Shown piece by piece: positions 45,022 to 56,578 of a DNA stretch of 64,000 nt. Position numbers and translations under genes: made by a program. Below the pieces are notes generated by a model that saw nothing but the letters and a program-made list of their open reading frames with translations, made no database searches and was not told the origin of the DNA. Numbering within the stretch: position 1 is the first letter of the stretch; each line of letters begins with the position of its first letter. Source of the DNA: an uncultured delta proteobacterium (GTDB taxonomy: Bacteria; Myxococcota; Myxococcia; SLRQ01); NCBI GenBank assembly GCA_963727485.1, contig CAVSGM010000001.1, positions 736,001 to 800,000 on the forward strand, given 5' to 3'.

Positions 45022-45574
45022 CTAGATGCCGCAGATCTGGCCGCTGTAGTCGCCGGTGGTGACCCCGGTGGCCTGGTCGAGGTTCCCTCGGAGCAGGAGG
45101 TAGCCGTGGGCGCCCTGGAGCCCGTCGGCCCCGTCGGTGATGGTGACCATGGCCGCCTGCTTGCCGTTGCCGCCGAGGTCGATGACCCCGTTGTCGGTGC
45201 CCACCAGCGAGCCGCCCCAGACCGGCTGCACCAGGCTGGAGCCCGTGTAGTAGATGACGCCCGGCGTGGTGGCCTGGGGGCTGGGCATCAGGGAGTCCAT
45301 CACGAAGGAGTAGTCTCCTCGCAGCGAACCGGTGAGCTTGCCGGCGGTGCAGAAGCCCACCGCCGAGCTGCACTGGGCGGCCGGTACCGGCACCGACCGG
45401 TAGTGGCCGTAGACGTGACGGCAGTCGGGGTGGTGGGCGTCCTCGTCGCGGTCGCCGTGGGCGGTGGCCGGCACGGTGAGCGCCAGGGCGCCGACACAGG
45501 CCACCACAGCGCCGAATCCAGCGCCCCCACCGCACACGTTTCCCGTTCACCCGTTCAGGGATCTGGCTTCTCAT
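45022..45574 (-). CDS. Secreted beta-barrel-like hypothetical protein (dirigent/AOC-like strands); probable frameshift near 45520
   Basis: GAGGAGG RBS before ATG 45574; signal ending ATAHG in the other frame; CSSAVGFCTAG, ITDGADGLQGAHGYL, YSGQIC. Confidence 0.55.
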
Positions 45575-45789: not shown

Positions 45790-46299
45790 TCAGATCGTTG
45801 CGCTGCGGCCTCCGCCCATCTCGGCGAGCTGACGCCGGATGTCCGCCACCGCCTCCGCCAGCTCCCTGGGGCTGGTGGCGCCATCGGGCATGCTCGGAGC
45901 CATCCAGGACGAAGCGGCGTTTACCGTGGCGAAGACCTTGTGCGGGAAGGGCTGCTTGGCCACGAGGCTGATGCCGGTGACCACGCTGCGCACCGCAGCG
46001 GCGCGGAAGCCCGCCCCCTCGAAGACCACGCCGGAGGCCTTGATCAGGTCCCCGAACTCGCGGAGCGTCCGGGAAAGCTCGTCACGGACTTCGCCGGGCG
46101 GCATGCTCGCGTTGGGCTCGATGATGCTGAGCACCGCGCAGCCGTTGGGGTGACTCGCCTGTAGGTCCTGGAGGCCTTGACGACAGGCGTCGATGCCTTT
46201 GCGCGTGGTGTCGTGCCGCCAGATGACGACCGACAGCTCACGCCAGGACCCGGTGCAGAAGTCTTCGTCGTTGAGAAGAACGCTCGGTGATGTCAGCAT
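45790..46299 (-). CDS. STAS/SEC14-like myxobacterial small-ligand-binding protein
   Basis: PPGEVR, VVFEGAGFRAAAVRSVVTGI, PHKVFATVNAASSW. Confidence 0.65.
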   Translation of the reverse strand: MLTSPSVLLNDEDFCTGSWRELSVVIWRHDTTRKGIDACRQGLQDLQASHPNGCAVLSIIEPNASMPPGEVRDELSRTLREFGDLIKASGVVFEGAGFRAAAVRSVVTGISLVAKQPFPHKVFATVNAASSWMAPSMPDGATSPRELAEAVADIRRQLAEMGGGRSATI

Positions 46300-46383: not shown

Positions 46384-48190
46384 TTACGAGGTCAAGCCGA
46401 GGCGACGCATCTTGCGTCCGAGGGTCGCCGGGCTCACCCCCAGGGCCTTGGCGGCCCGCCGCACCACGCCGCCGTGGCGGGCGAGGGCCTCGAGGATGGC
46501 GGCCCGCTCGGCGTGGGCCACCCGAGCACGCAAGGTGCCCCCACGGGCCTCCAGTGCCGAGGCTCCGGGCGCTTGGCGCAGGCTGCCCGGCAGCTGCTCC
46601 GCGCCGATGGGGGCGCCGGGCTGGGCCAGGAGCACCGCCCGCTCCACCACGTTCCGGAGCTCGCGGACGTTCCCCGGCCAGCGGTAGGCTCGGAGGAGCC
46701 GTTCGACCTCCGGTGAGAAGCCGTTGGCCTGGACCCCGAGGCTCTCGTTGGCCTCCTCGAGAAAGTGCCGGGCCAGCACCAGGACGTCCTCGTCCCGGTC
46801 CCGCAAGGGCGGGATATCGATGACGAAGGTGCACAGCCGATAGAAGAGGTCCTCGCGGAACCGGCCCGCGGCCACCTCGCTGCGCAGGTCCCGGTTGCTC
46901 GCGGCCACCACGCGCACGTCCACCTGGTGGGGGCGGGTGCCGCCGACCGGGCGCACGGTCCCGGTCTCCAGGACCCGCAGCAGCCGCGACTGCACCTTGG
47001 GGGAGGTGTTCTCGACCTCGTCGAGGAAGAGCGTGCCCCCGTCGGCCAGGCGGAACAGACCCAGGTGGTCGGCGGTGGCCCCGGTGAACGCACCCTTCAC
47101 GTGGCCGAAGAGCTCGCTCTCGAGGATGCCCTCGGGGAGGGCGCCGCAATCCTGGATGACGAAGCCATCCTCGGCCCTGGGAGAGAGCTCGTGGAGGAGC
47201 CGCGCGAGGATCTCCTTACCGGTGCCCGTCTCGCCCTGGAGGAGCACGGGCATCCGGTGCGGGGCGACCCGACGCACGAGCTCTACCACGTGGCCCATCG
47301 CCGGGGCCTGGTGGACCAGGCGTGAATCGACCGCACCTGGCGCCGTGCACGGGGGTGCTGGGCGGCCCGCTCGCGGAGCAGGCCGCGCTCGAGCGCCTGG
47401 GCGAGGCGACGCTGCTCGCTGCGGAGGCCGTAGTCGGCGCAGCCCTCGAGGACGAGGTCGCGGAGGGCCGTGGCGCTCACCGGTGGGGCCGCGCTGCGGA
47501 AGAGCTTGCCCGCGTTGAAGCCCTTCACCATGGCGCCGGGGGGACCGGTCCGACGGGGATGAGCCGCGGCGCCCGGTCCCGGGTGATGCCGACGAGGCGC
47601 GGATCCCGGGCGTCGAAGAGCGCATGGGTCGCGGCGATCACAGCCTCGAGGTCCGCCTCCGTCGCGGCGAAGGCCACCACCGCGGCGACGTCGCCCCGCT
47701 CGACGACCCGAGCCAGGGCCGCCGCCGAGGCGGCGAAGTGGAGCTGGGTACGCGAGGCCAGGGCGCGCTCGGCGGGTCGGCGCTCCGGGCCGCCGGCGAG
47801 GGCCACGGCTACGTGGAAGCGGTAGTCCTCCAGGTAGCGCGCCAGGCTCGCCTGGTCTCCGACCGGCATGGAGACGAACTGCAGCCCCAGTCCCACGCCA
47901 AGTTCTCCGCCGGGAGACGCCGGGGGATCGTGGCGCCAGCGGACCTCCGCCCGGGCCCGGATCTCCGCGCCCGAGTCCGGGAGGGCAAACTCCAGTCGAC
48001 GTCGCCCTCGGCCGGGAGCTGGTGCCGGCTCGGGGGGCCGTCCGGCCACCAGCCCGAGGCCGGTGCTGCTGATGTCCACGGTCCAGCAGTCGTGGATCCG
48101 GGGCCGGGTGGGCACTGGACGAAGAGCGGCAGCCGCGCGGGGCGCTGGGGGGCGGTGCTCTGTTTCAATTCTGATACACGCGTCATCCAT
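46384..48190 (-). CDS. PilZ - degenerate receiver - sigma54 AAA+ - Fis HTH enhancer-binding protein; several frameshifts (ORFs 47525-48190, 47283-47531, 46384-~47330)
   Basis: DISSTGLGL, AEVRW, GLGLQF; FNAGKLFR; GETGTGKE, ESELFGHVKGAFTGA, LFLDEV, RFREDLFYRL, WPGNVREL, AAKALGVSPATLGRKM. Confidence 0.85.
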
Positions 48191-48296: not shown

Positions 48297-48313
48297 CTGG
48301 CATATGTCATGCT
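48297..48313 (+). promoter_or_regulatory. Sigma54 -24/-12 promoter
   Basis: CTGGCATATGTCATGCT: GG-N10-GC with TGGCA and TGCT, divergent from a bEBP gene. Confidence 0.75.
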
Positions 48314-48577
48314 TGCACCATCCTGGGGCGAAGAATCCACAGGACTAGTGACCGGCAACACGAAACGATATTCCCCCGTTGCACACGTGGGCCAAGGGCT
48401 CGTTTGGGAGCCCCGGGGGCTGACAATCGAGCCCTTGGTGGCGGACCCCGGTGTGGCCCGGGCACCCTCCGGCGCAGGCGCGCCGAGGCGGGGCCCGCGG
48501 GCCTGGTGGTGGCCACCGAGATAGCCCGGGTCGGCCCGTCGGTGCGCCTCGTCGACGCCGGTGATCCGGACACGGGA

Positions 48578-49631
48578 ATGGCGTCCCTCGGTGGCAGGGG
48601 CACGGACGTGCTGCGCTACCTGGTCCTCGCCCCGGCCCTCGAGGCCGAGGGCGCCGTTCCTCGCACGGGCCTGCGGATCCAGGGCAGCGACCGCCGGGCA
48701 GGGCTACGCCTCGCCTCTCCCCGCGCTGGCGTCCGCCGCCCGCGGTCGCGGCTGCGGACCGACTCCTGGCCCGGGTGCCATCGACGCCGCGGGGCCCAGG
48801 CGTTCCTCCTCGTCGGCGGGGGCGGCGGGTGGCCGGCGTTCCCGGTGCTGGTCTTGGCCAGCGTCCCGGCGCTAGGGCTGACCCCCCACGGTCGTTGCTG
48901 GGGCGGCGCGGTGGTGGGGCCCGAGCTGCGATCCTCGCTGTCTCCGGCACCCTGACGGGCGTGGCCGCTCGCGGCTCCTCGGCCAGGCGCCAACCGCCGA
49001 GCGCCACAAGACCGAGGAGTTCGCCTCGGCCCGGGAGGCGCTTCTCGCCGAGGTGGAGGTGGCCCAAGAGGTACAGACCCTCCTCCTCTGGAGATGGAGG
49101 TCGCCCAGCGGATCCAGACCTTGCTCCTGCCCCGGACTCCCCCGGGTCCCCGACCACGAGGTGGTGGGGCGGATGATCACCGCCAGCGAGGTGGGTGGCG
49201 ACGACTACGACGTCCTGGAGGCTCGGCGCCCGCTGCCTCAACCGTGCCATGGGCCGGAACCTGCCGATGCTGATCGGCGCCGCGCCACCGCCGCCCTCGA
49301 GGAGGTGGAGCTGGAGGCGATGTGGCGCGGGGTCCTCGACGACCTCGAGCCCGAGCAGCTCCCGGCGGCCCGCTTCCGCCTCGGCGCCGGGGACCTGCTC
49401 TTCCGCTACACCGACGGGGTCGTCGAGCAGTTCGCCGACGACGAGATATCCGGCTTCGAGCGCATCAAGGACGTAATCGGCGAAACGCCCTGCCGGGGCG
49501 GCGGTCCGCGTGGACGAGGGGCTCCGGAGCCTCGAGGACTTCTCTTCGGAGCAGGAGGACGACATCCATGCTCGTCCTCGACCATGCCGGAGACGGCGCC
49601 GTGGTGGGGGCCAACGAGGAGGTCGCGATGA
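48578..49631 (+). pseudogene. Membrane-linked SpoIIE/RsbU-type PP2C phosphatase, multiply frameshifted or incomplete
   Basis: EMEVAQRIQTLLLP, ASEVGGDDYDV, GDLLFRYTDGVVE, GFERI, EQEDDI; central DVxGHG segment not found; start uncertain. Confidence 0.6.
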
Positions 49632-51683
49632 GCGAGCGCACCGTGAATCTGGACGGCGGCGTCGCGACGCCGGAGGGGGCCCCAGCGTCGGGGCGTCGCG
49701 GTGGCTGCCGGCTCCGACGCGGCGCCGGCGTGTTCGTCGAGGTGGACGGCCTCGGCTCCGGGTGGACGCCCTGGACCCCGAGGGCGTGGAGGTGCGCCTC
49801 GCCCACGGGGAGGTGATCGCACGACCGGGTCCACGAGGTGCACCTCCTGGGATGAGATGCGGGTGGGCCCCCTGTCGGCCGAGGTCCGGGGCCACCCCGG
49901 GACGCCGGCCACGTCGGGGCCCTCACCCTCGGCTTCGTCACCCGAGCCCTCCATGGGCCGGGTGCTCCTCGGGGTGGTGGGCGCCCTCGCCGGCCGGGGC
50001 CTCGTCCAGGGTCCGGGTCGAGGACACCAGTGCCCGCGGAGATCATCGTTAATCCGGCGCGGAATCGGACGCCTGATACAGGGCTTCGCCGCGGGCCTCA
50101 CCGGGGCCCAGCTCCGCCAACCGGGGCAGCGCAGCCGGGTGGAGGGGTGGCTGGTGGGCCTGTCGCCGGATCCGGCGCGGCCCCTGCTCTGGGTGCTCGA
50201 CGGAACGCCCCGGAGGCGCCCCTGGAGATACGGGTGGCGGGCTACAGCTCGGCCTCGTGTTCCGCGTCGACCAGGCGCGTCGACGGGGGGCCTACCTCGG
50301 ACCCCCGAGCCCGAGGAGGTGGTCCGGCTCCGGACCCGGCGACATCAGCGGGCCCCCGCCCCCCTCGGGGCCTGGATCTCCTTCACCCACCCCCTGTGGC
50401 CCGGGGATCGGGTGCGCCGGCCCCTGCACGACGTGTCCTACGCCGGCCTCGGGTTCGCCACCGAGGCCTTCCGGGACGTGATGTGGCCGGGGCTGTCGCT
50501 CCCGCGGGTGGAGGTGCGTGCCCGGCGGCCAGCCCCTCAAGGTCGATGCGGTGGTGCGCCACGTGTCCCGGCGAGGCCGGGAGCACGGGGAATCTGCGGC
50601 GTGGAGCTGGGCGGCGACCTGGCCCGGTGGCACGCCACGGTGGAGCGCACCTCTACCCCACGACCCGCACCGCCTCCGACGAGGGCCTCTGGGACCTCTA
50701 CGTCGACTCGGGATACTTCAACATCTCGGGCAAGGCGGAGACCGGCTTCAGGCCGCGTCCGCCAGGCCTTCTCACCACCGACCAGGCCATGGGGCGCGCC
50801 CCGGCGGTCGCTGCCTGCGTGTGGCCCTCGTCCCGGGGCGTCGAGGCGGGCATGACCATGGCCCGGCCCTATCTGGGGAGCTGGGTGGCCTACCAGCTCG
50901 CCCGACGCCAGGACGAGGCGCCGGTCCCCGGAGCGCCAAGCGTGCTCCGGGAGACCCTGCTCCACAGCCTGGAGCACGCCTGGCGCGACCCGGGGTTCCG
51001 GTGGTTCATCACCTGGGTGCAGCACGCGGCTTCCCCTACCTGCTCCACGACCTCACCCAGCGGTGGATCGGCGAGACCGCGCTGGCCGCGATCGTGCCCT
51101 TCCACGCCTTCGAGGGGACGCGGCTGCCCTCCCCGGCATCGAGGTGGAGCTCGAGCTGGGGCCACCGTCGGCGAAGGAGCGGCAGCGGTTCCTGGCGCAC
51201 CTCGCCGCCACCCGCCGTGAGCCCTTCGTGGAGGCCCACGACCTCGTCGCCGAGCACCTCGACCTCGCCGACGCCCGGCGCGCCTGGACCGCCGCCGGGC
51301 TCACCGGGACGCGCATCCCCGTGTCGCCCGGCACGGGCGCCCGGTGGCCATGGCGGTGGCCGAGCTCGCCGAGGAGGGCGTCCACCTCTTCGCCCTCTTC
51401 CACGCCGTGCGGCTCCTCGCCCTGGAGGGGGCGCCGAGCCGCCTTCCCACGCTCCTGGAGGACGCGCGCGACTGGTACCAGGGGCTGGGCAAGGAGAAGT
51501 TCGTCCTCTTCCTCGAGGACCCCTGGCCGGGGGTCGCCGACACCGGCCTCGTCGATCTCGGGGCCGCCGACACCACCGTGCTCTCGGCCGATCTCCTCCC
51601 CGACCAGCTGGAGCACATCTGGGAGATCACCGCACCCCGGGCGCCGCCCCGGCCCCGTCGCCCCCGAGGACGGAGACCGATGA
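49628..51683 (+). CDS. PilZ-containing protein with putative C-terminal acyltransferase-like (GNAT/FeeM-like) region; many frameshifts
   Basis: GAGGAGG RBS and ATGA overlap; RRHQR and DVSYAG PilZ motifs (~50335-50450); downstream LWDLYVDSGYFNISGK, SWVAYQLARR; acyltransferase identity is inferred. Confidence 0.55.
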
Positions 51684-53959
51684 CCGACCTCGCAGAGCGC
51701 CTCGACCTGATGAGCCGCGCCACCGGCGACTCCGACGTCTGGCACCCCGAGCTCCTCGACGCCGCCGCCGTGAGAGCTGGCGTGATTGAGCGCCTCCTCG
51801 ACGCCGAGCTGGTCCAGGCGGTCCACGACACCCTGGAGGACCAGCTCTGTGAGCTGATGGAGATCCGTAATCCCACCGAGGAGGACCCCGAGGCGCCTTC
51901 CTGGAGGAGGGCCCTGGCGTTCCTGCCCCTGGAGGCGCGGCGAGCTACGGGATCTGGGTCTACTACCCGTGGTCCCTGCAGCTGGTCCACTGCTCCTGCC
52001 GAAGGAGCCTACCGCGAGGTCCGGCTCTCCCGGAACCGCAACAAGATCACCCCGCGAGAGCAGGCCCGCCTGGGCACGCTGACCATCGGCGTCGCCGGGC
52101 TCTCGGTGGGCCAGGCCTCGGCCATCGCCCTGGCCATGGAGGGCATCGGTGGGCCTTCCGCCTCGCGGACTTCGACCGCCTCTCGCTCTCCAACCTCAAC
52201 CGGCTCCGCGGTGGGGTCGCGCGACCTGGGGGTCAACAAGGCGCGGCTCGCGGCCCGGGCCCTCTTCGAGATCGACCCGTACCTCGAGGTGGAGATCTTC
52301 CCCGAGGGCATCACCGCGGAGAACTACGAGGGCTTCCTCGACGGTCTCGACCTCCTCATCGAGGAGTGCGACGACCTCTACATGAAGCTCCGCCTCCGCG
52401 AGGGGGCCCGGGCCCGGCGGATCCCGGTGGTGATGGACACCAACGACCGGGGGCTCCTCGACGTCGAGCGCTTCGACCTCGAGCCGGAGCGGCCCATCCT
52501 CCATGGCCTGGTGGGCGACCTCGAGGCCGCACCCTCGAGCGGGCTGTCCACCGAGGACAAGGTGCCCTACGTCCTCGACATCGTCGGGGGGGCCGACGCG
52601 GTGTCCCCGCGCCTCGCCGCCTCGATGGTGGAGATCGGCAACACCCTGAACACCTGGCCCCAGCTCGCCTCCGACGTGCTCCTCGGGCGGCGCCTCTGCG
52701 CCGACGTCGCCCGGCGCATCGCCCTCGGGGGGATCTCGCGACTCGGGGCGCTTCTGCGTCGAGCTCGAGCAGCTGGTCGCCGACGGCCAGAGCGATCGAT
52801 GACTCCCGCCGAACCCGAGGCCGGCGCCCGTGACCGAGGTCCCCGACGGCGCCGGCGGTGGCGCCGGCGAGCGGCGCGAGCTCGCCCGGGAGCTCTCGCG
52901 GCCCTGGCCGGCTGCGGCGTCCTGGCGCCGTCCGGGGGGCAACTGCCAGCCTTGGCGGCTCGAGGCCCGGGGCGACCGGATCCGCTGCCATCCACGACGT
53001 GGCCCGCTCCGAGAGCTTCCTCGACTTCCAGCACCGCGCCAGCTACCTGGCCTTCGGGGCCCTGGCGGAGAACCTGCGCCATCGCCGCCTCCCAGCATGG
53101 GGCTGGCGGTGGAGGTCGAGCGCCTTCCCGCGAGGCCGGGGATCCCACCGTGGTCTGCGACCTCGAGCTCCAGCCGCGGAGGCCGGGGTGCGCGCCCGAT
53201 CCCCTCTTGAGCGTCCTCGCCGATCGCGCCACCAACCGGCGCCTGGGGACGCGTGTCCCTCTGGAGCCGGCGGCCCGCGGCGGCGCTCCGGAGGCCGCCG
53301 CGGCCCGCGGGCGGTACGCCTCCACCTCCTCGAGGAGCCGGAGGCGATGCGGCGGATGAGCGCCATCCTCGAGCGCGGGCGATCGCCTCCGCTTCCTCTC
53401 GCCGATCATGCACCGGGAGATGATGTGCGAGGTGCGATGGACCACCCGAGGAGGCCCTCCGCACCCGGGACGGGCTGGACGTCGGCACCCTGGAGCTCAG
53501 CCCCGCCGACCGCGCGGGGATGCAGGTGACCCGTGCTTTCCGGGTCATGGAGCTGGTGGGGCGCTTCGGCGGGGGCCAGGCCCTGGGCAAGCCCACGCGC
53601 AAGGCGGTGGAGGCGTCGTCGGCCCTGGGGCTGGTCACCTTCCCGGGCACGGGCGCCCGGCGACGCCTTCGCCGGTGGCCGGGCCCTGGAGCGGGTGTGG
53701 CTCACCGCCACCGCCCAGGGCCTCGCCTTCCAGCCCCTCACCGCCATCGTCTACCTCTTCAACCGCCTCGAGGCCGGCGGCGAGGGCCTGACCGAGGCGG
53801 AGCGCGCCGAGCTGACCGAGCTGCGGGCCGCGTGGCGCGAGCTGCTCCCCACCCCCGAGGGCCACTCGGAGATGATGCTCTTCCGGCTCGCCCAGGCGCC
53901 GCCGCCCACGGTCCGCGCCCTGCGCCGGCCCGGTGGAGGACGTGCTCAGCTTCGCGTGA
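51680..53959 (+). CDS. ThiF-nitroreductase di-domain enzyme (Rv1355c/MoeY, OxzB-like); many frameshifts
   Basis: WVYYPW, RNRNKIT...IGVAGLSVG, LADFDRLSLSNLNRL, IEECDD, DRGLLDVERFDLEP, TWPQLASDV; then LAPSGGNCQPW, RATNRR, GGRALERVWLTATAQGLAFQP. Confidence 0.85.
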
Positions 53960-54676
53960 CCCGGCCCCCGAGCTCGTCCTCCCAGAGGGCGATGCCCCCG
54001 AGGATGCCCAGGTCGTTGGAGACGGTCTGGACGTCCTCGGGGAGCTCGAAGTCGAGGTGCTCGGCGTTGCCGCCGCCGATGTAGAGGCGGTCGAAGTTCA
54101 CCAGGCTCCGGAGGATCCGAAGGACCTTCTCCACCCGGTGGTTCCACTTCTCGTTGCCCTTCTTCTTCCGGGCGTGGTCGCCGAGGTAGTCGTTGTAGGT
54201 CTTGCTTCTTGTGGACCGGGTGGTGGGCGAGCTCGAGGTGGGGCATGAGCTCGCCGTCCCGGAAGAGCGCCGAGCCGAAGCCGGTGCCCAGGGTGATCGA
54301 CCATCTCCAGGCCCTCGCCCTTCACCGCGGCGAGGCCCTGCATGTCGGCGTCGTTGAGGATCCGGGTGGGGCGGTCGAGGCGCGCCTTCAGCGCCCCGGC
54401 GAGATCGAAGCCGGCCCAGACCTCGTTGCCGAAGTGGGGGGCGGTGACGACGGTGCCGCCGCGCACCACCCCGGGGAAGCCCACGGAGATGCGCCCGTAG
54501 TCCGGGAGGCCGTCGACGAGCCCCACCAGGGCGTCCACCAGGACCTTCGGGGGGCAGGGGTAGGGCGTCTTCACCCGGACCCGGTCGTGGAGCATCTTCC
54601 CTTCGGCGTCGAGGACCGAGGCCTTGAGGCCGGTGCCGCCGACGTCGATGGCGAGGGTGGGGCGGGGGTCAGGCAT
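53946..54676 (-). CDS. ROK family kinase (polyphosphate glucokinase-like); frameshifts near 54300 and 54210
   Basis: AIDVGGTGLK, VGFPGVV, LNDADMQG, LGTGFGSAL, PHLELAHHP, LYIGGGN. Confidence 0.88.
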
Positions 54677-54688
54677 CGGCTCATGGTA

Positions 54689-56578
54689 TCAGTCCCGGGG
54701 CCGGTCGAGGCGGTCCTCGGGGCGCTCGGGGAAGGTGGCGGTGAGCCGGTAGACCCCCTCCTCGAGCTGGGAGCGGATCTTGAGGCCGCTCTCGTGGAAC
54801 ACCCCGAGCATCAGCCGGTTGTCGGCGAGCACGTCGGCGGTGAACCCGCGCAGGCCCCGGTCCCGGGCGATCTCCGAGAGCCGGCGCAACAGCAGGCTGC
54901 CGATGCGCTTGTTCTGCCAGTCGTCGCGGACCACGAAGGCGATGTCGGCGAGCCGCGTCGCCGGGTCCACGTCGTAGCGGGCCACGGCGATGATCTCCCG
55001 GTCCTCCTTGCCCTCGGGGGTGACCACCAGCGCCATGTTGCTCTCGAAGTCGAGGTCGACGAGGTGCTGGAGCTCCTCGTGGGGGTGGCGCGCCTTGAAG
55101 CTCATGAACCGCCGGTAGGTGCTCTCGTCGGAGAGGCGGTAGAAGAGGTCCTGGAGCGGCTCCTCGTCGGTGATCCGCGCCGGACGGACCATGATCTTCT
55201 CGCCGCCGGGGAGGGTGGCGGTGCTTGCGCCTCCTCCCAGGGGTAGCTCGCCCGGGGGACGACCTGGTCGGGGAAGACGTAGCGCCGGTGCTTGGCCCGG
55301 GCGAGGAGCTCGGCCCGGTGATCGGGGTGGGCGATCTCGATGAGGGCCATGGCCCGCTGGCGGATGTTCTTCCCCCAGAGGTCGGCGATGCCGTACTCGG
55401 TGACCACGTAGTGGACGTCGCCGCGGCTGGTGACCACCCCGGCGCCCTCCTCGAGGGCCGCCTGGATGCGGCTGACCTCGCCGTCCTTGGCGGTGGAGGG
55501 CAGGGCGACGATGGCCTTGCCCCCGTGGCTCCGCGCGGCGCCGCGGATGAAGTCGACCTGGCCGCCGATGCCCGAGAAGAACCGCCCCATGAGGGTGTCG
55601 GCGGCGACCTGGCCGGTGAGGTCCACGGCGAGCGCCGAGTTGATGGCGACGAAGCAGTCGTGGCGGGCGATGTTGAAGGGGTCGTTGGTGAAGTTCGAGG
55701 GCCGCATCTCCACCGCCGGGTTGTCGTCGACCCAGTCGTAGAGCTTGCGGGTCCCCATGACGAAGGAGGTGACCATCTTCCCCGGCAGGAGCTTCTTCTT
55801 CTTCCCGGTGATGACCCCGGCCTCGTAGAGGTCCATGACCCCGTCGGAGAGCATCTCGGTGTGGACGCCCGAGGTGGTGGCGGTCGGTGAGGGCCTCCAT
55901 CACCGCGTCGGGGATGCCGCCGATGCCCGTCTGCAGCGTGGCGCCGTCGGGGATGAGGCTCGCCACGTGGCCGCCGATGGCCCGGGTCACCTCGTCGAGC
56001 TCGCCGTGCTTGAGCTCCGGCAGCGGGCTGTCCACCGGGACCAGGTGGTCGATGTGGTCCACGTGGAGGAAGGCGTCGCCCAGGGTCCGGGGCATCTGCG
56101 GGTTGACCTCGGCGATGATGAGGTCGGCGGCCTGCACCCCGGCGCGGACCACGTCCACCGAGACCCCGAGGCTCACGTAGCCGTGGCGGTCCGGGGGCGA
56201 GACCTGGATCAGCGCCACGTCGATGCGCATCCGCCGGCTGCGGATGAGCTCGGGGATCTCCGAGAGGAAGACGGGCATGAAGTCGGCCCGGCCCTCCTGC
56301 ACCGCCTCCCGGACGTTGGCGCCGATGAAGAACGCGGTGTGCCGGAAGCGCCGCTCCAGCCCCGGGGCCACGTAGGGCGCCGGCCCCAGGGTGAGGAGGT
56401 GGACGATCTCGTTGTCGGAGAGGTGGCCCCCGAAGGTGACCAGGCCCTCCACCAGGCTCCCGGGCACCGCGGCCCCGGAGCCGATGAGGATCCGCCGCCC
56501 CCGGGGCACGGCCTTGATGGCCTGCTCCACCGAGCAGATCTTCGAGGCAAAGGCTTGCTGCCAGGCGGCGTCGGCCAT
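54689..56578 (-). CDS. Acetyl-CoA hydrolase/transferase fused to a C-terminal GNAT domain; two compensating frameshifts (~55870, ~55225)
   Basis: SPPDRHGYVSLG, GATLQTGIGGIP, HTEMLSDG, SGIGGQVDFIRGA, VVTEYG; GNAT YRRF...VARY...AFVVRDDWQNKRIG. Confidence 0.9.
   Translation of the reverse strand: MADAAWQQAFASKICSVEQAIKAVPRGRRILIGSGAAVPGSLVEGLVTFGGHLSDNEIVHLLTLGPAPYVAPGLERRFRHTAFFIGANVREAVQEGRADFMPVFLSEIPELIRSRRMRIDVALIQVSPPDRHGYVSLGVSVDVVRAGVQAADLIIAEVNPQMPRTLGDAFLHVDHIDHLVPVDSPLPELKHGELDEVTRAIGGHVASLIPDGATLQTGIGGIPDAVMEALTDRHHLGRPHRDALRRGHGPLRGRGHHREEEEAPAGEDGHLLRHGDPQALRLGRRQPGGGDAALELHQRPLQHRPPRLLRRHQLGARRGPHRPGRRRHPHGAVLLGHRRPGRLHPRRRAEPRGQGHRRPALHRQGRRGQPHPGGPRGGRRGGHQPRRRPLRGHRVRHRRPLGEEHPPAGHGPHRDRPPRSPGRAPRPGQAPALRLPRPGRPPGELPLGGGASTATLPGGEKIMVRPARITDEEPLQDLFYRLSDESTYRRFMSFKARHPHEELQHLVDLDFESNMALVVTPEGKEDREIIAVARYDVDPATRLADIAFVVRDDWQNKRIGSLLLRRLSEIARDRGLRGFTADVLADNRLMLGVFHESGLKIRSQLEEGVYRLTATFPERPEDRLDRPRD

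Follow-up and report, generated by a model that had tools for sequence, protein, structure and literature searches.

The 64-kb stretch of DNA analysed here (G000:C1:736001-800000, hereafter the window) has ~73% GC, and its named phylum-level relatives are Myxococcota. At 48.3-54.0 kb it carries a three-gene operon whose last two genes encode a PilZ protein with a predicted C-terminal tandem GNAT domain and a ThiF domain fused to a nitroreductase domain (Table 1), a pairing that may place N-acyl oxazolone synthesis under the influence of cyclic di-GMP (c-di-GMP). This segment contains no intact long reading frame, and none of the three operon genes is intact as assembled. A search of 41 related genomes identified an intact syntenic cluster in G003, a member of the same family as the source, and the window was mapped onto it by frameshift-aware alignment; intact orthologous clusters, on which a first-pass annotation of the window had made its interpretation depend, therefore exist. 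The G003 cluster begins with a divergent PilZ-sigma54 activator, a flavin oxidoreductase, a type III polyketide synthase-like gene (a weak match, E 1e-4) and STAS-like, HATPase-like and STAS-like genes, and continues with a membrane SpoIIE protein, a 182-aa secreted-type protein, the 692-aa PilZ fusion and the 763-aa ThiF-nitroreductase. ATGA overlaps had been proposed at both gene junctions (49628 and 51680); the ATGA letters are present, and the second overlap is real in G003, where ATGA joins the PilZ fusion to the ThiF-nitroreductase. The frames are not separate in the window as assembled, however: at both sites the end of the preceding gene reads straight through to the following ATG without a change of frame, and one further indel is needed for each overlap.

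Relative to G003, the PilZ gene carries 14 frameshifts, the ThiF-nitroreductase gene 17, the SpoIIE piece six and the activator three, with no in-frame stop codons. A frame-tracking model with switches counted per 5-kb bin gives a median of 3.5 over 140 bins and of 4 over 420 more, and the operon bin, with 30 switches, stands at the top of all 560. This excess, together with a first gene ~3.8 kb shorter than in G003 and the failure of tblastn to find the missing genes elsewhere in G000, would suit a cluster of truly decaying pseudogenes, whatever the state of its intact relatives. We regard such decay as improbable given the lack of in-frame stops and the state of the ThiF-nitroreductase gene, which retains 122 of the 124 alignment columns that are shared by 90% or more of 67 homologs and has a third-position GC content (GC3) of 0.95. 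Comparably dense runs also lie elsewhere in the same assembly (G000 C1:418740-421364 and C1:1052681-1055140, with 10 and 14 switches), in genes that we take from their translations to be those of alanyl-tRNA synthetase and Lon, respectively. The frameshifts in the window thus look like patchy assembly error, and apparent pseudogenes of this assembly are to be distrusted.

The ThiF-nitroreductase fusion recognised in the first-pass annotation is upheld by three kinds of comparison: a Pfam ThiF match (E 5e-7), the similarity of its first piece to the Rv1355c family (E 5e-106), and the alignment to the G003 ortholog (413 of 728 residues identical, frameshift-aware). Against the NF005901 model of the Rv1355c family (cut-off 476) the broken window piece scores 355 bits, and the G003 ortholog and its counterpart at locus L138 score 786 and 779 bits. 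The G003 protein has Pfam ThiF followed by Nitroreductase, with matches to PDB 2ymv (Acg; E 3e-16) and to MoeB, TcdA and ThiF, and by its sequence this fusion of an N-terminal ThiF domain to an Acg-like nitroreductase domain is of the Rv1355c/TrzS class. Residues D238, R574 and Q689, invariant in 10 orthologs and kept in the window, are by numbering offset candidate equivalents of D217, R540 and Q651 of TrzS. PMC12856293 identifies Rv1355c as TrzS, which cyclises and desaturates the N-acyl tryptophan made by TrzA, and describes the flanking rv1354c and rv1357c as a c-di-GMP link of trzAS, so that the position of Rv1355c among c-di-GMP turnover genes is in print; neither PilZ nor myxobacteria are mentioned in its main text. 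By analogy with TrzS and OxzB biochemistry, the window enzyme and its relatives are likely to carry out an ATP-dependent ring closure followed by an FMN/O2-dependent desaturation.

The PilZ fusion of the window is identical to its G003 ortholog at 248 of 560 positions, with residues 103-692 aligned. Its c-di-GMP binding motifs, RRHQR and DVSYAG, are intact as first noted and share one frame, and 104 of 126 homologs at least 520 aa long (from a set of 155) have both. Folds were modelled on the G003 ortholog. The N-terminal model (predicted local distance difference test, pLDDT, 90.1) has a PilZN-PilZ fold and resembles MrkH bound to c-di-GMP (5kgo; TM by target 0.79, root-mean-square deviation (rmsd) 3.3, E 2e-10) and YcgR bound to c-di-GMP (5y6f; E 2e-9). 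There are 23 GGDEF matches in G000, and the motifs, with the precedent of PixB discussed below, make it very likely that the PilZ module binds c-di-GMP. Neither Pfam nor NCBIfam has a family that matches the C-terminal 347 residues, and a profile search of PDB sequences returned chance matches only, but the C-terminal model (built from 24 sequences; pLDDT 92.9) is a tandem GNAT. Its top four chains are tied (Z 15.9, 15.7, 15.7 and 15.5) and include 3ddd (Z 15.9, rmsd 4.9 over 241), 3tt2 (Z 15.7, rmsd 4.6 over 270) and histidine acetyltransferase 9emd (Z 15.7, rmsd 4.1 over 272); Foldseek matches include glycine N-acyltransferase and N-myristoyltransferases, and Acetyltransf_1 clusters of the Atlas align with TM 0.60-0.67. 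An acyltransferase fold, which the first-pass annotation had anticipated in this half of the protein, is thus predicted. Its expected likeness to FeeM and OxzA gives way to a PixB-like tandem GNAT: FeeM (PF21926) is not matched on the 692-aa ortholog or on 11 homologs, the domain is 347 aa long and tandem, and the same FeeM model does match neighbours at loci L092 (E 8e-34) and L214 (E 4e-20). A profile of the family gathers 1,491 clusters at 50% identity.

Table 1. Features of the PilZ-tandem-GNAT/ThiF-nitroreductase region, in window coordinates
Feature	Coordinates	Strand	Basis
171-aa protein, probably secreted, recurring cluster companion	45022..45537	-	G003 homolog and locus counts
169-aa protein, recurring companion	45790..46299	-	no Pfam family
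PilZ-sigma54 enhancer-binding protein, divergent from operon; one gene in pieces through 3 frameshifts	46384..48186	-	Pfam PilZ, Sigma54_activat
Sigma54-like -24/-12 site, TGGCAT-N5-ATGCT, 2 mismatches	48298..48313	+	motif scan
N-terminal piece of flavin-dependent oxidoreductase (first operon gene of G003)	48488..48700	+	hidden Markov model E 5.7e-6, three frames
C-terminal piece of membrane SpoIIE/PP2C phosphatase, incomplete as assembled	48800..49631	+	Pfam SpoIIE E 3.7e-5
Predicted PilZ-tandem-GNAT, PixB-related: N-terminal beta domain, YcgR/MrkH-like PilZN-PilZ, tandem GNAT from ~50650	49628..51683	+	ortholog alignment, ortholog folds
RxxxR motif (RRHQR)	50337..50351	+	motif in 123/126 homologs
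DxSxxG motif (DVSYAG)	50430..50447	+	D/NxSxxG in 106/126 homologs
ThiF-nitroreductase fusion, Rv1355c/TrzS family	51680..53959	+	ortholog score, G003 alignment

The relationship between the two proteins was examined at 179 ThiF-nitroreductase loci (the best 80 of at least 585 genome loci, the best 80 of at least 440 metagenome loci, and the further loci labelled in this analysis), using partner profiles seeded from the same loci as were counted. A single-GNAT-like or FeeM neighbour is present at 118 of these, a PilZ-GNAT at 26 and neither at 35, and no locus has both. Excluding seven loci whose ThiF part was not complete, and collapsing the others at 95% identity, leaves 159 distinct loci, with a single GNAT or FeeM at 109, a PilZ-GNAT at 21 (five duplicates having been dropped), neither at 29 and again none with both. 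The two genes thus co-occur well beyond the window, as the reading in the first-pass annotation would require. At the 21 paired loci the PilZ-GNAT gene is directly upstream on the same strand in 10, upstream with genes between in four, downstream in two and on the other strand in five; among named cultured strains the pair occurs in Polyangium fumosum (WP_136930824.1 and WP_136930823.1), P. jinanense, Polyangium sp. 15x6 and Minicystis rosea. No other GNAT or FeeM (Pfam) was found in 87 neighbouring open reading frames (ORFs) of 120-480 aa, drawn from 104 at 19 paired loci, and no FeeM over cut-off in any of five paired genomes, in which a profile of the partner family found in Bacteroidota also matched nothing, in a search run without a positive control. 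An apparently solitary ThiF-nitroreductase in genus g12 was dropped as a candidate, a single-GNAT gene having been found in those loci. At six actinomycete loci (L156, L169, L185, L196, L198 and L202) a GNAT-like region and ThiF lie in one frame in ORFs of 596-657 aa; these are possibly fusions, and a KAS III gene follows some of them.

This mutual exclusion supports the proposal, on sequence grounds, that the PilZ-tandem-GNAT replaces OxzA or TrzA in the oxazolone pathway. It is partly confounded by phylum, but not a phylum effect alone, since a supported 17-row ThiF clade that includes the G003 enzyme is itself divided, with a PilZ-GNAT in six rows, a single GNAT or FeeM in six and none found in five. 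Judged from gene context, the tandem GNAT is probably the acyl donor enzyme, and on balance we favour a two-step pathway in which it would place a fatty acyl group on an aromatic amino acid and its Rv1355c-family neighbour would cyclise and desaturate the N-acyl amino acid to an N-acyl oxazolone, with c-di-GMP on the PilZ module tuning the acylation step. In the counts behind the exclusion, the largest partner group, of 86 loci and from Bacteroidota wherever a name is given, has a weak assignment to GNAT, with an Acetyltransf_1 match at E 0.007 in one of four members scanned, 1vhs at E 0.68, and a profile link to L128, which itself has a weak GNAT match. Several observations in addition to the phylum effect weigh against this pathway. 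The C-terminal profile of the PilZ fusion aligns to this single-domain Bacteroidota family with an hhalign probability of 0.1. FeeM (2G0B) is not among the fold matches listed for the C-terminal model, and those matches mix protein acylases with small-molecule enzymes at tied Z scores. The GNAT coenzyme A (CoA) pyrophosphate loop, given as Q/RxxGxG/A in the available text of PMC13060382, is present in 12 of the 126 homologs in the first GNAT and in three in the second. The 29 of 159 loci without a detected acyltransferase, 11 of which have flanks of at least 3 kb, show that an adjacent partner is not obligatory. Finally, in a survey of 301 genomes of the phylum, with few candidates scored per genome, 98 have the C-terminal domain and 17 have the ThiF fusion, and in family f2 a PilZ-GNAT is found in 77 of 115 genomes and the ThiF fusion in none. 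The PilZ-GNAT family therefore has other jobs, and most of its members occur without the ThiF enzyme, so the earlier suggestion that a PilZ fusion stands in for OxzA is favoured by the exclusion of ordinary partners at paired loci and does not extend to the family at large.

These points bear directly on a different account, in which the tandem GNAT would be a c-di-GMP-controlled protein lysine acylase or a dead regulator and the N-acyl amino acid would come from elsewhere. VipF and N-myristoyltransferase are among the fold matches, the canonical CoA loop is missing, the family adjoins many different enzymes and kinases, and one paralog group stands alone, all of which would accord with it. 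There is little reason, however, for a regulator and an ordinary acyltransferase to be mutually exclusive, yet none of the 179 loci has both; no FeeM over cut-off was found in the five paired genomes, and most partners of the family tailor small molecules (a haem-oxygenase-like oxidase, a methyltransferase, a B12 radical SAM enzyme, a FAD oxidase and a tryptophan halogenase). We consider a protein acylase or regulator unlikely at these loci.

The C-terminal profile (A1) also matches, over positions 13-342 with E 6e-29, an 804-aa protein of G024. Counted from a methionine with a ribosome-binding site, this protein has RxxxR arginines at 121 and 331, neither of its second motifs has the Ser, and two genes follow it; its 90% cluster includes M. 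xanthus proteins, none of them from strain DK1622 among the 15 of 21 members listed. It fits the published description of PixB (MXAN_2604) and we identify it as a putative PixB ortholog. PixB binds c-di-GMP in vitro and its acetyltransferase domain is essential, as reported in PMC8316039. The first-pass statement that no characterised myxobacterial system of this kind was known is therefore overstated, a relative having been studied in M. xanthus. The window protein resembles PixB in combining PilZ with a C-terminal GNAT, but PixB belongs to a separate and distant clade in a 55-row tree, its motifs lack the Ser whereas those of the window protein are intact, and the genes that come after it encode a methyltransferase and a histidine kinase rather than a ThiF-nitroreductase; by sequence, the window protein is a distant PixB relative and not its ortholog. 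The G024 segment L104:6183-12276 carries the putative pixB, then an S-adenosylmethionine methyltransferase gene and a large kinase-type gene, a layout that is shared with five other loci and suggests a small-molecule product for PixB.

PixB also provides the best guide to what c-di-GMP might do. According to PMC8316039, motility during growth requires its acetyltransferase domain, which by itself is sufficient, and can be complemented by RxxxR mutants, but R331A fails in development. The growth phenotypes count against strict control in the preferred pathway, as does the existence of PilZ-less homologs of ~370 aa. They would be explained if the pair makes an N-acyl oxazolone without gating by c-di-GMP, the PilZ module serving to localise or stabilise the enzyme or acting in special conditions only; c-di-GMP regulation of the PilZ-containing synthases Nas343 and Nas354, too, is no more than a proposal in PMC4897644. 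The conservation of RxxxR and DxSxxG among homologs (Table 1), the developmental failure of R331A and, weakly, the closer fit of the predicted model to ligand-bound MrkH and YcgR than to their apo forms speak against this ungated alternative, which we think rather unlikely. From the motifs and PixB we lean towards c-di-GMP binding altering catalysis, a boost being likelier than an on/off switch, as the PixB genetics favour modulation over a strict gate. Direct control of synthesis by c-di-GMP, as first suggested, thus keeps the intact motifs in its favour, but strict gating is doubtful.

When the ThiF-nitroreductase is absent, the genes downstream of the PilZ-GNAT encode a haem-oxygenase-like oxidase, a methyltransferase, a B12 radical SAM enzyme or a FAD oxidase; some PilZ-GNATs stand alone, and a histidine kinase is often near non-ThiF members. 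At L061, L063, L065-L067, L105, L114 and L115, an arrangement common in f2, the PilZ-tandem-GNAT gene is directly 5' of one for a 250-aa haem-oxygenase-like diiron oxidase (two of eight scanned are over cut-off, two are weak and four have no match), apparently an uncharacterised two-gene pathway. In the PilZ-GNAT tree (four duplicates dropped, midpoint root) the oxidase-linked and stand-alone f2 groups nest inside the ThiF-linked rows. L106, L108, L110 and L118 have a B12-binding radical SAM enzyme after the PilZ-tandem-GNAT, with a hybrid kinase next in two. A tryptophan halogenase gene lies between those of the ThiF-nitroreductase and PilZ-GNAT at L151 (E 4e-133) and L217, which hints at tryptophan as the acceptor there and makes halogenated tryptazolones possible products. 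Four loci (L017, L083, L094 and L107) share a multi-helix membrane region, similar by eye, fused to SpoIIE or histidine kinases, and this region is a candidate for the receptor that senses the product. The oxazolone product is probably a signal, because the pair repeatedly has sensor kinases or PP2C/STAS modules as neighbours. A broader and still tentative view, which we hold to be possible but doubtful, is that PixB-type PilZ-tandem-GNATs (~1,500 clusters at 50% identity) are N-acyl amino acid synthases of a new class, activated by c-di-GMP. Myxobacteria would produce lipid signals by combining them with sensor kinases and with one or another exchangeable tailoring enzyme, such as an oxazolone synthetase, a haem-oxygenase-like oxidase, a methyltransferase, a B12 radical SAM enzyme or a halogenase. 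If so, the substrate of M. xanthus PixB would be an amino acid and its product a developmental signal.

The leftmost genes of the region are recurring companions of the pair. The 171-aa protein is identical at 79 of 148 positions, without frameshifts, to the product of the gene that immediately precedes the PilZ-GNAT gene of G003, and its family occurs at 7 of the 21 PilZ-GNAT/ThiF loci versus 1 of 153 other ThiF loci; the 169-aa protein, with no Pfam or NCBIfam match, belongs to a family present at 8 of 21 versus 0 of 153. The PilZ-sigma54 activator (324 of 584 residues identical to the intact 596-aa G003 gene product) has a degenerate RxxxR with the first Arg replaced, resembling the description of MXAN_2902. 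A sigma54 promoter had been placed ahead of the operon; taken by itself the motif is no commoner than chance (the window has 11 matches, versus 13.7 expected), although G003 carries a similar site, TGGCAG-N5-ATGCA, at the same position, and in both genomes the site adjoins the divergent sigma54 activator, which would probably drive the operon. A sigma70 promoter scan found none. The first gene is not the plain SpoIIE gene it was taken for, being a hybrid with an oxidoreductase start and a SpoIIE end. The start scores 94 against its best oxidoreductase homolog (shuffled maximum 57) and is significant by profile only, pairwise BLAST with the G003 oxidoreductase alone being not significant; the SpoIIE piece is identical to G003 at 129 of 243 positions with two 29-aa gaps, in which the GDVSGHG motif present in G003 is lost as assembled. 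The ~3.8 kb shortfall may be a real deletion or a mis-assembly. To the right of the operon, on the minus strand at 53956-56578, are a ROK-type kinase gene and an acetyl-CoA hydrolase/GNAT-like fusion with about two frameshifts in each.

The closest known counterpart of the window operon is TrzA/TrzS (Rv1356c/Rv1355c), which makes N-acyl tryptazolone (PMC12856293) and shares with it a ThiF-flavin oxidase of the same NCBIfam, a preceding gene of acyltransferase fold and a c-di-GMP link; TrzA is a small single acyltransferase, whereas the window partner is a 690-aa PilZ-tandem-GNAT with the c-di-GMP sensor inside the enzyme. As far as their accessible texts describe them, OxzA/OxzB (bioRxiv 10.1101/2020.06.11.147165) and TyzA/B/C (PMC10404671) share the logic of an N-acyltransferase with ThiF and nitroreductase functions, but TyzA is like FeeM and acyl-homoserine lactone synthases and the window partner has no FeeM match. 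OxzB and TyzB fall in a different subcluster from TrzS in the available account of Kleetz et al.; OxzB hosts reported in the accessible part of the bioRxiv paper are alpha-, beta- and gammaproteobacteria, and oxazolone chemistry is further covered, in the parts available, by a ThiF review (PMC12596934) and a stieleriacine paper (PMC12479983). A PilZ link to N-acyl amino acid synthesis is not without precedent: PMC4897644 described the PilZ-fused synthases Nas343 and Nas354 in 2016, proposed c-di-GMP control for them, and cites NasP as activated by cyclic AMP. Those proteins, of ~394 aa, have FeeM first and PilZ last, with no operon or oxazolone enzyme described there, whereas the window protein has PilZ first and the tandem GNAT last. 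A literature search, mostly of open-access main texts, found neither a report of a PilZ-tandem-GNAT paired with an oxazolone enzyme nor one of acyl-oxazolones from myxobacteria. PMC12856293 calls the physiological role of N-acyl oxazolones unresolved, and PMC8316039 gives the PixB substrate as unknown; the locus ties these questions together, since a relative of PixB takes the place of the acyltransferase in a predicted oxazolone pathway, and it suggests a specific substrate for a family that lacks annotation, in which acyl transfer and its control by c-di-GMP can be assayed through the cultured Polyangium and Minicystis carriers. What is new here in comparison with these systems is the class of acyltransferase in the oxazolone pathway and the bridge from that pathway to PixB.

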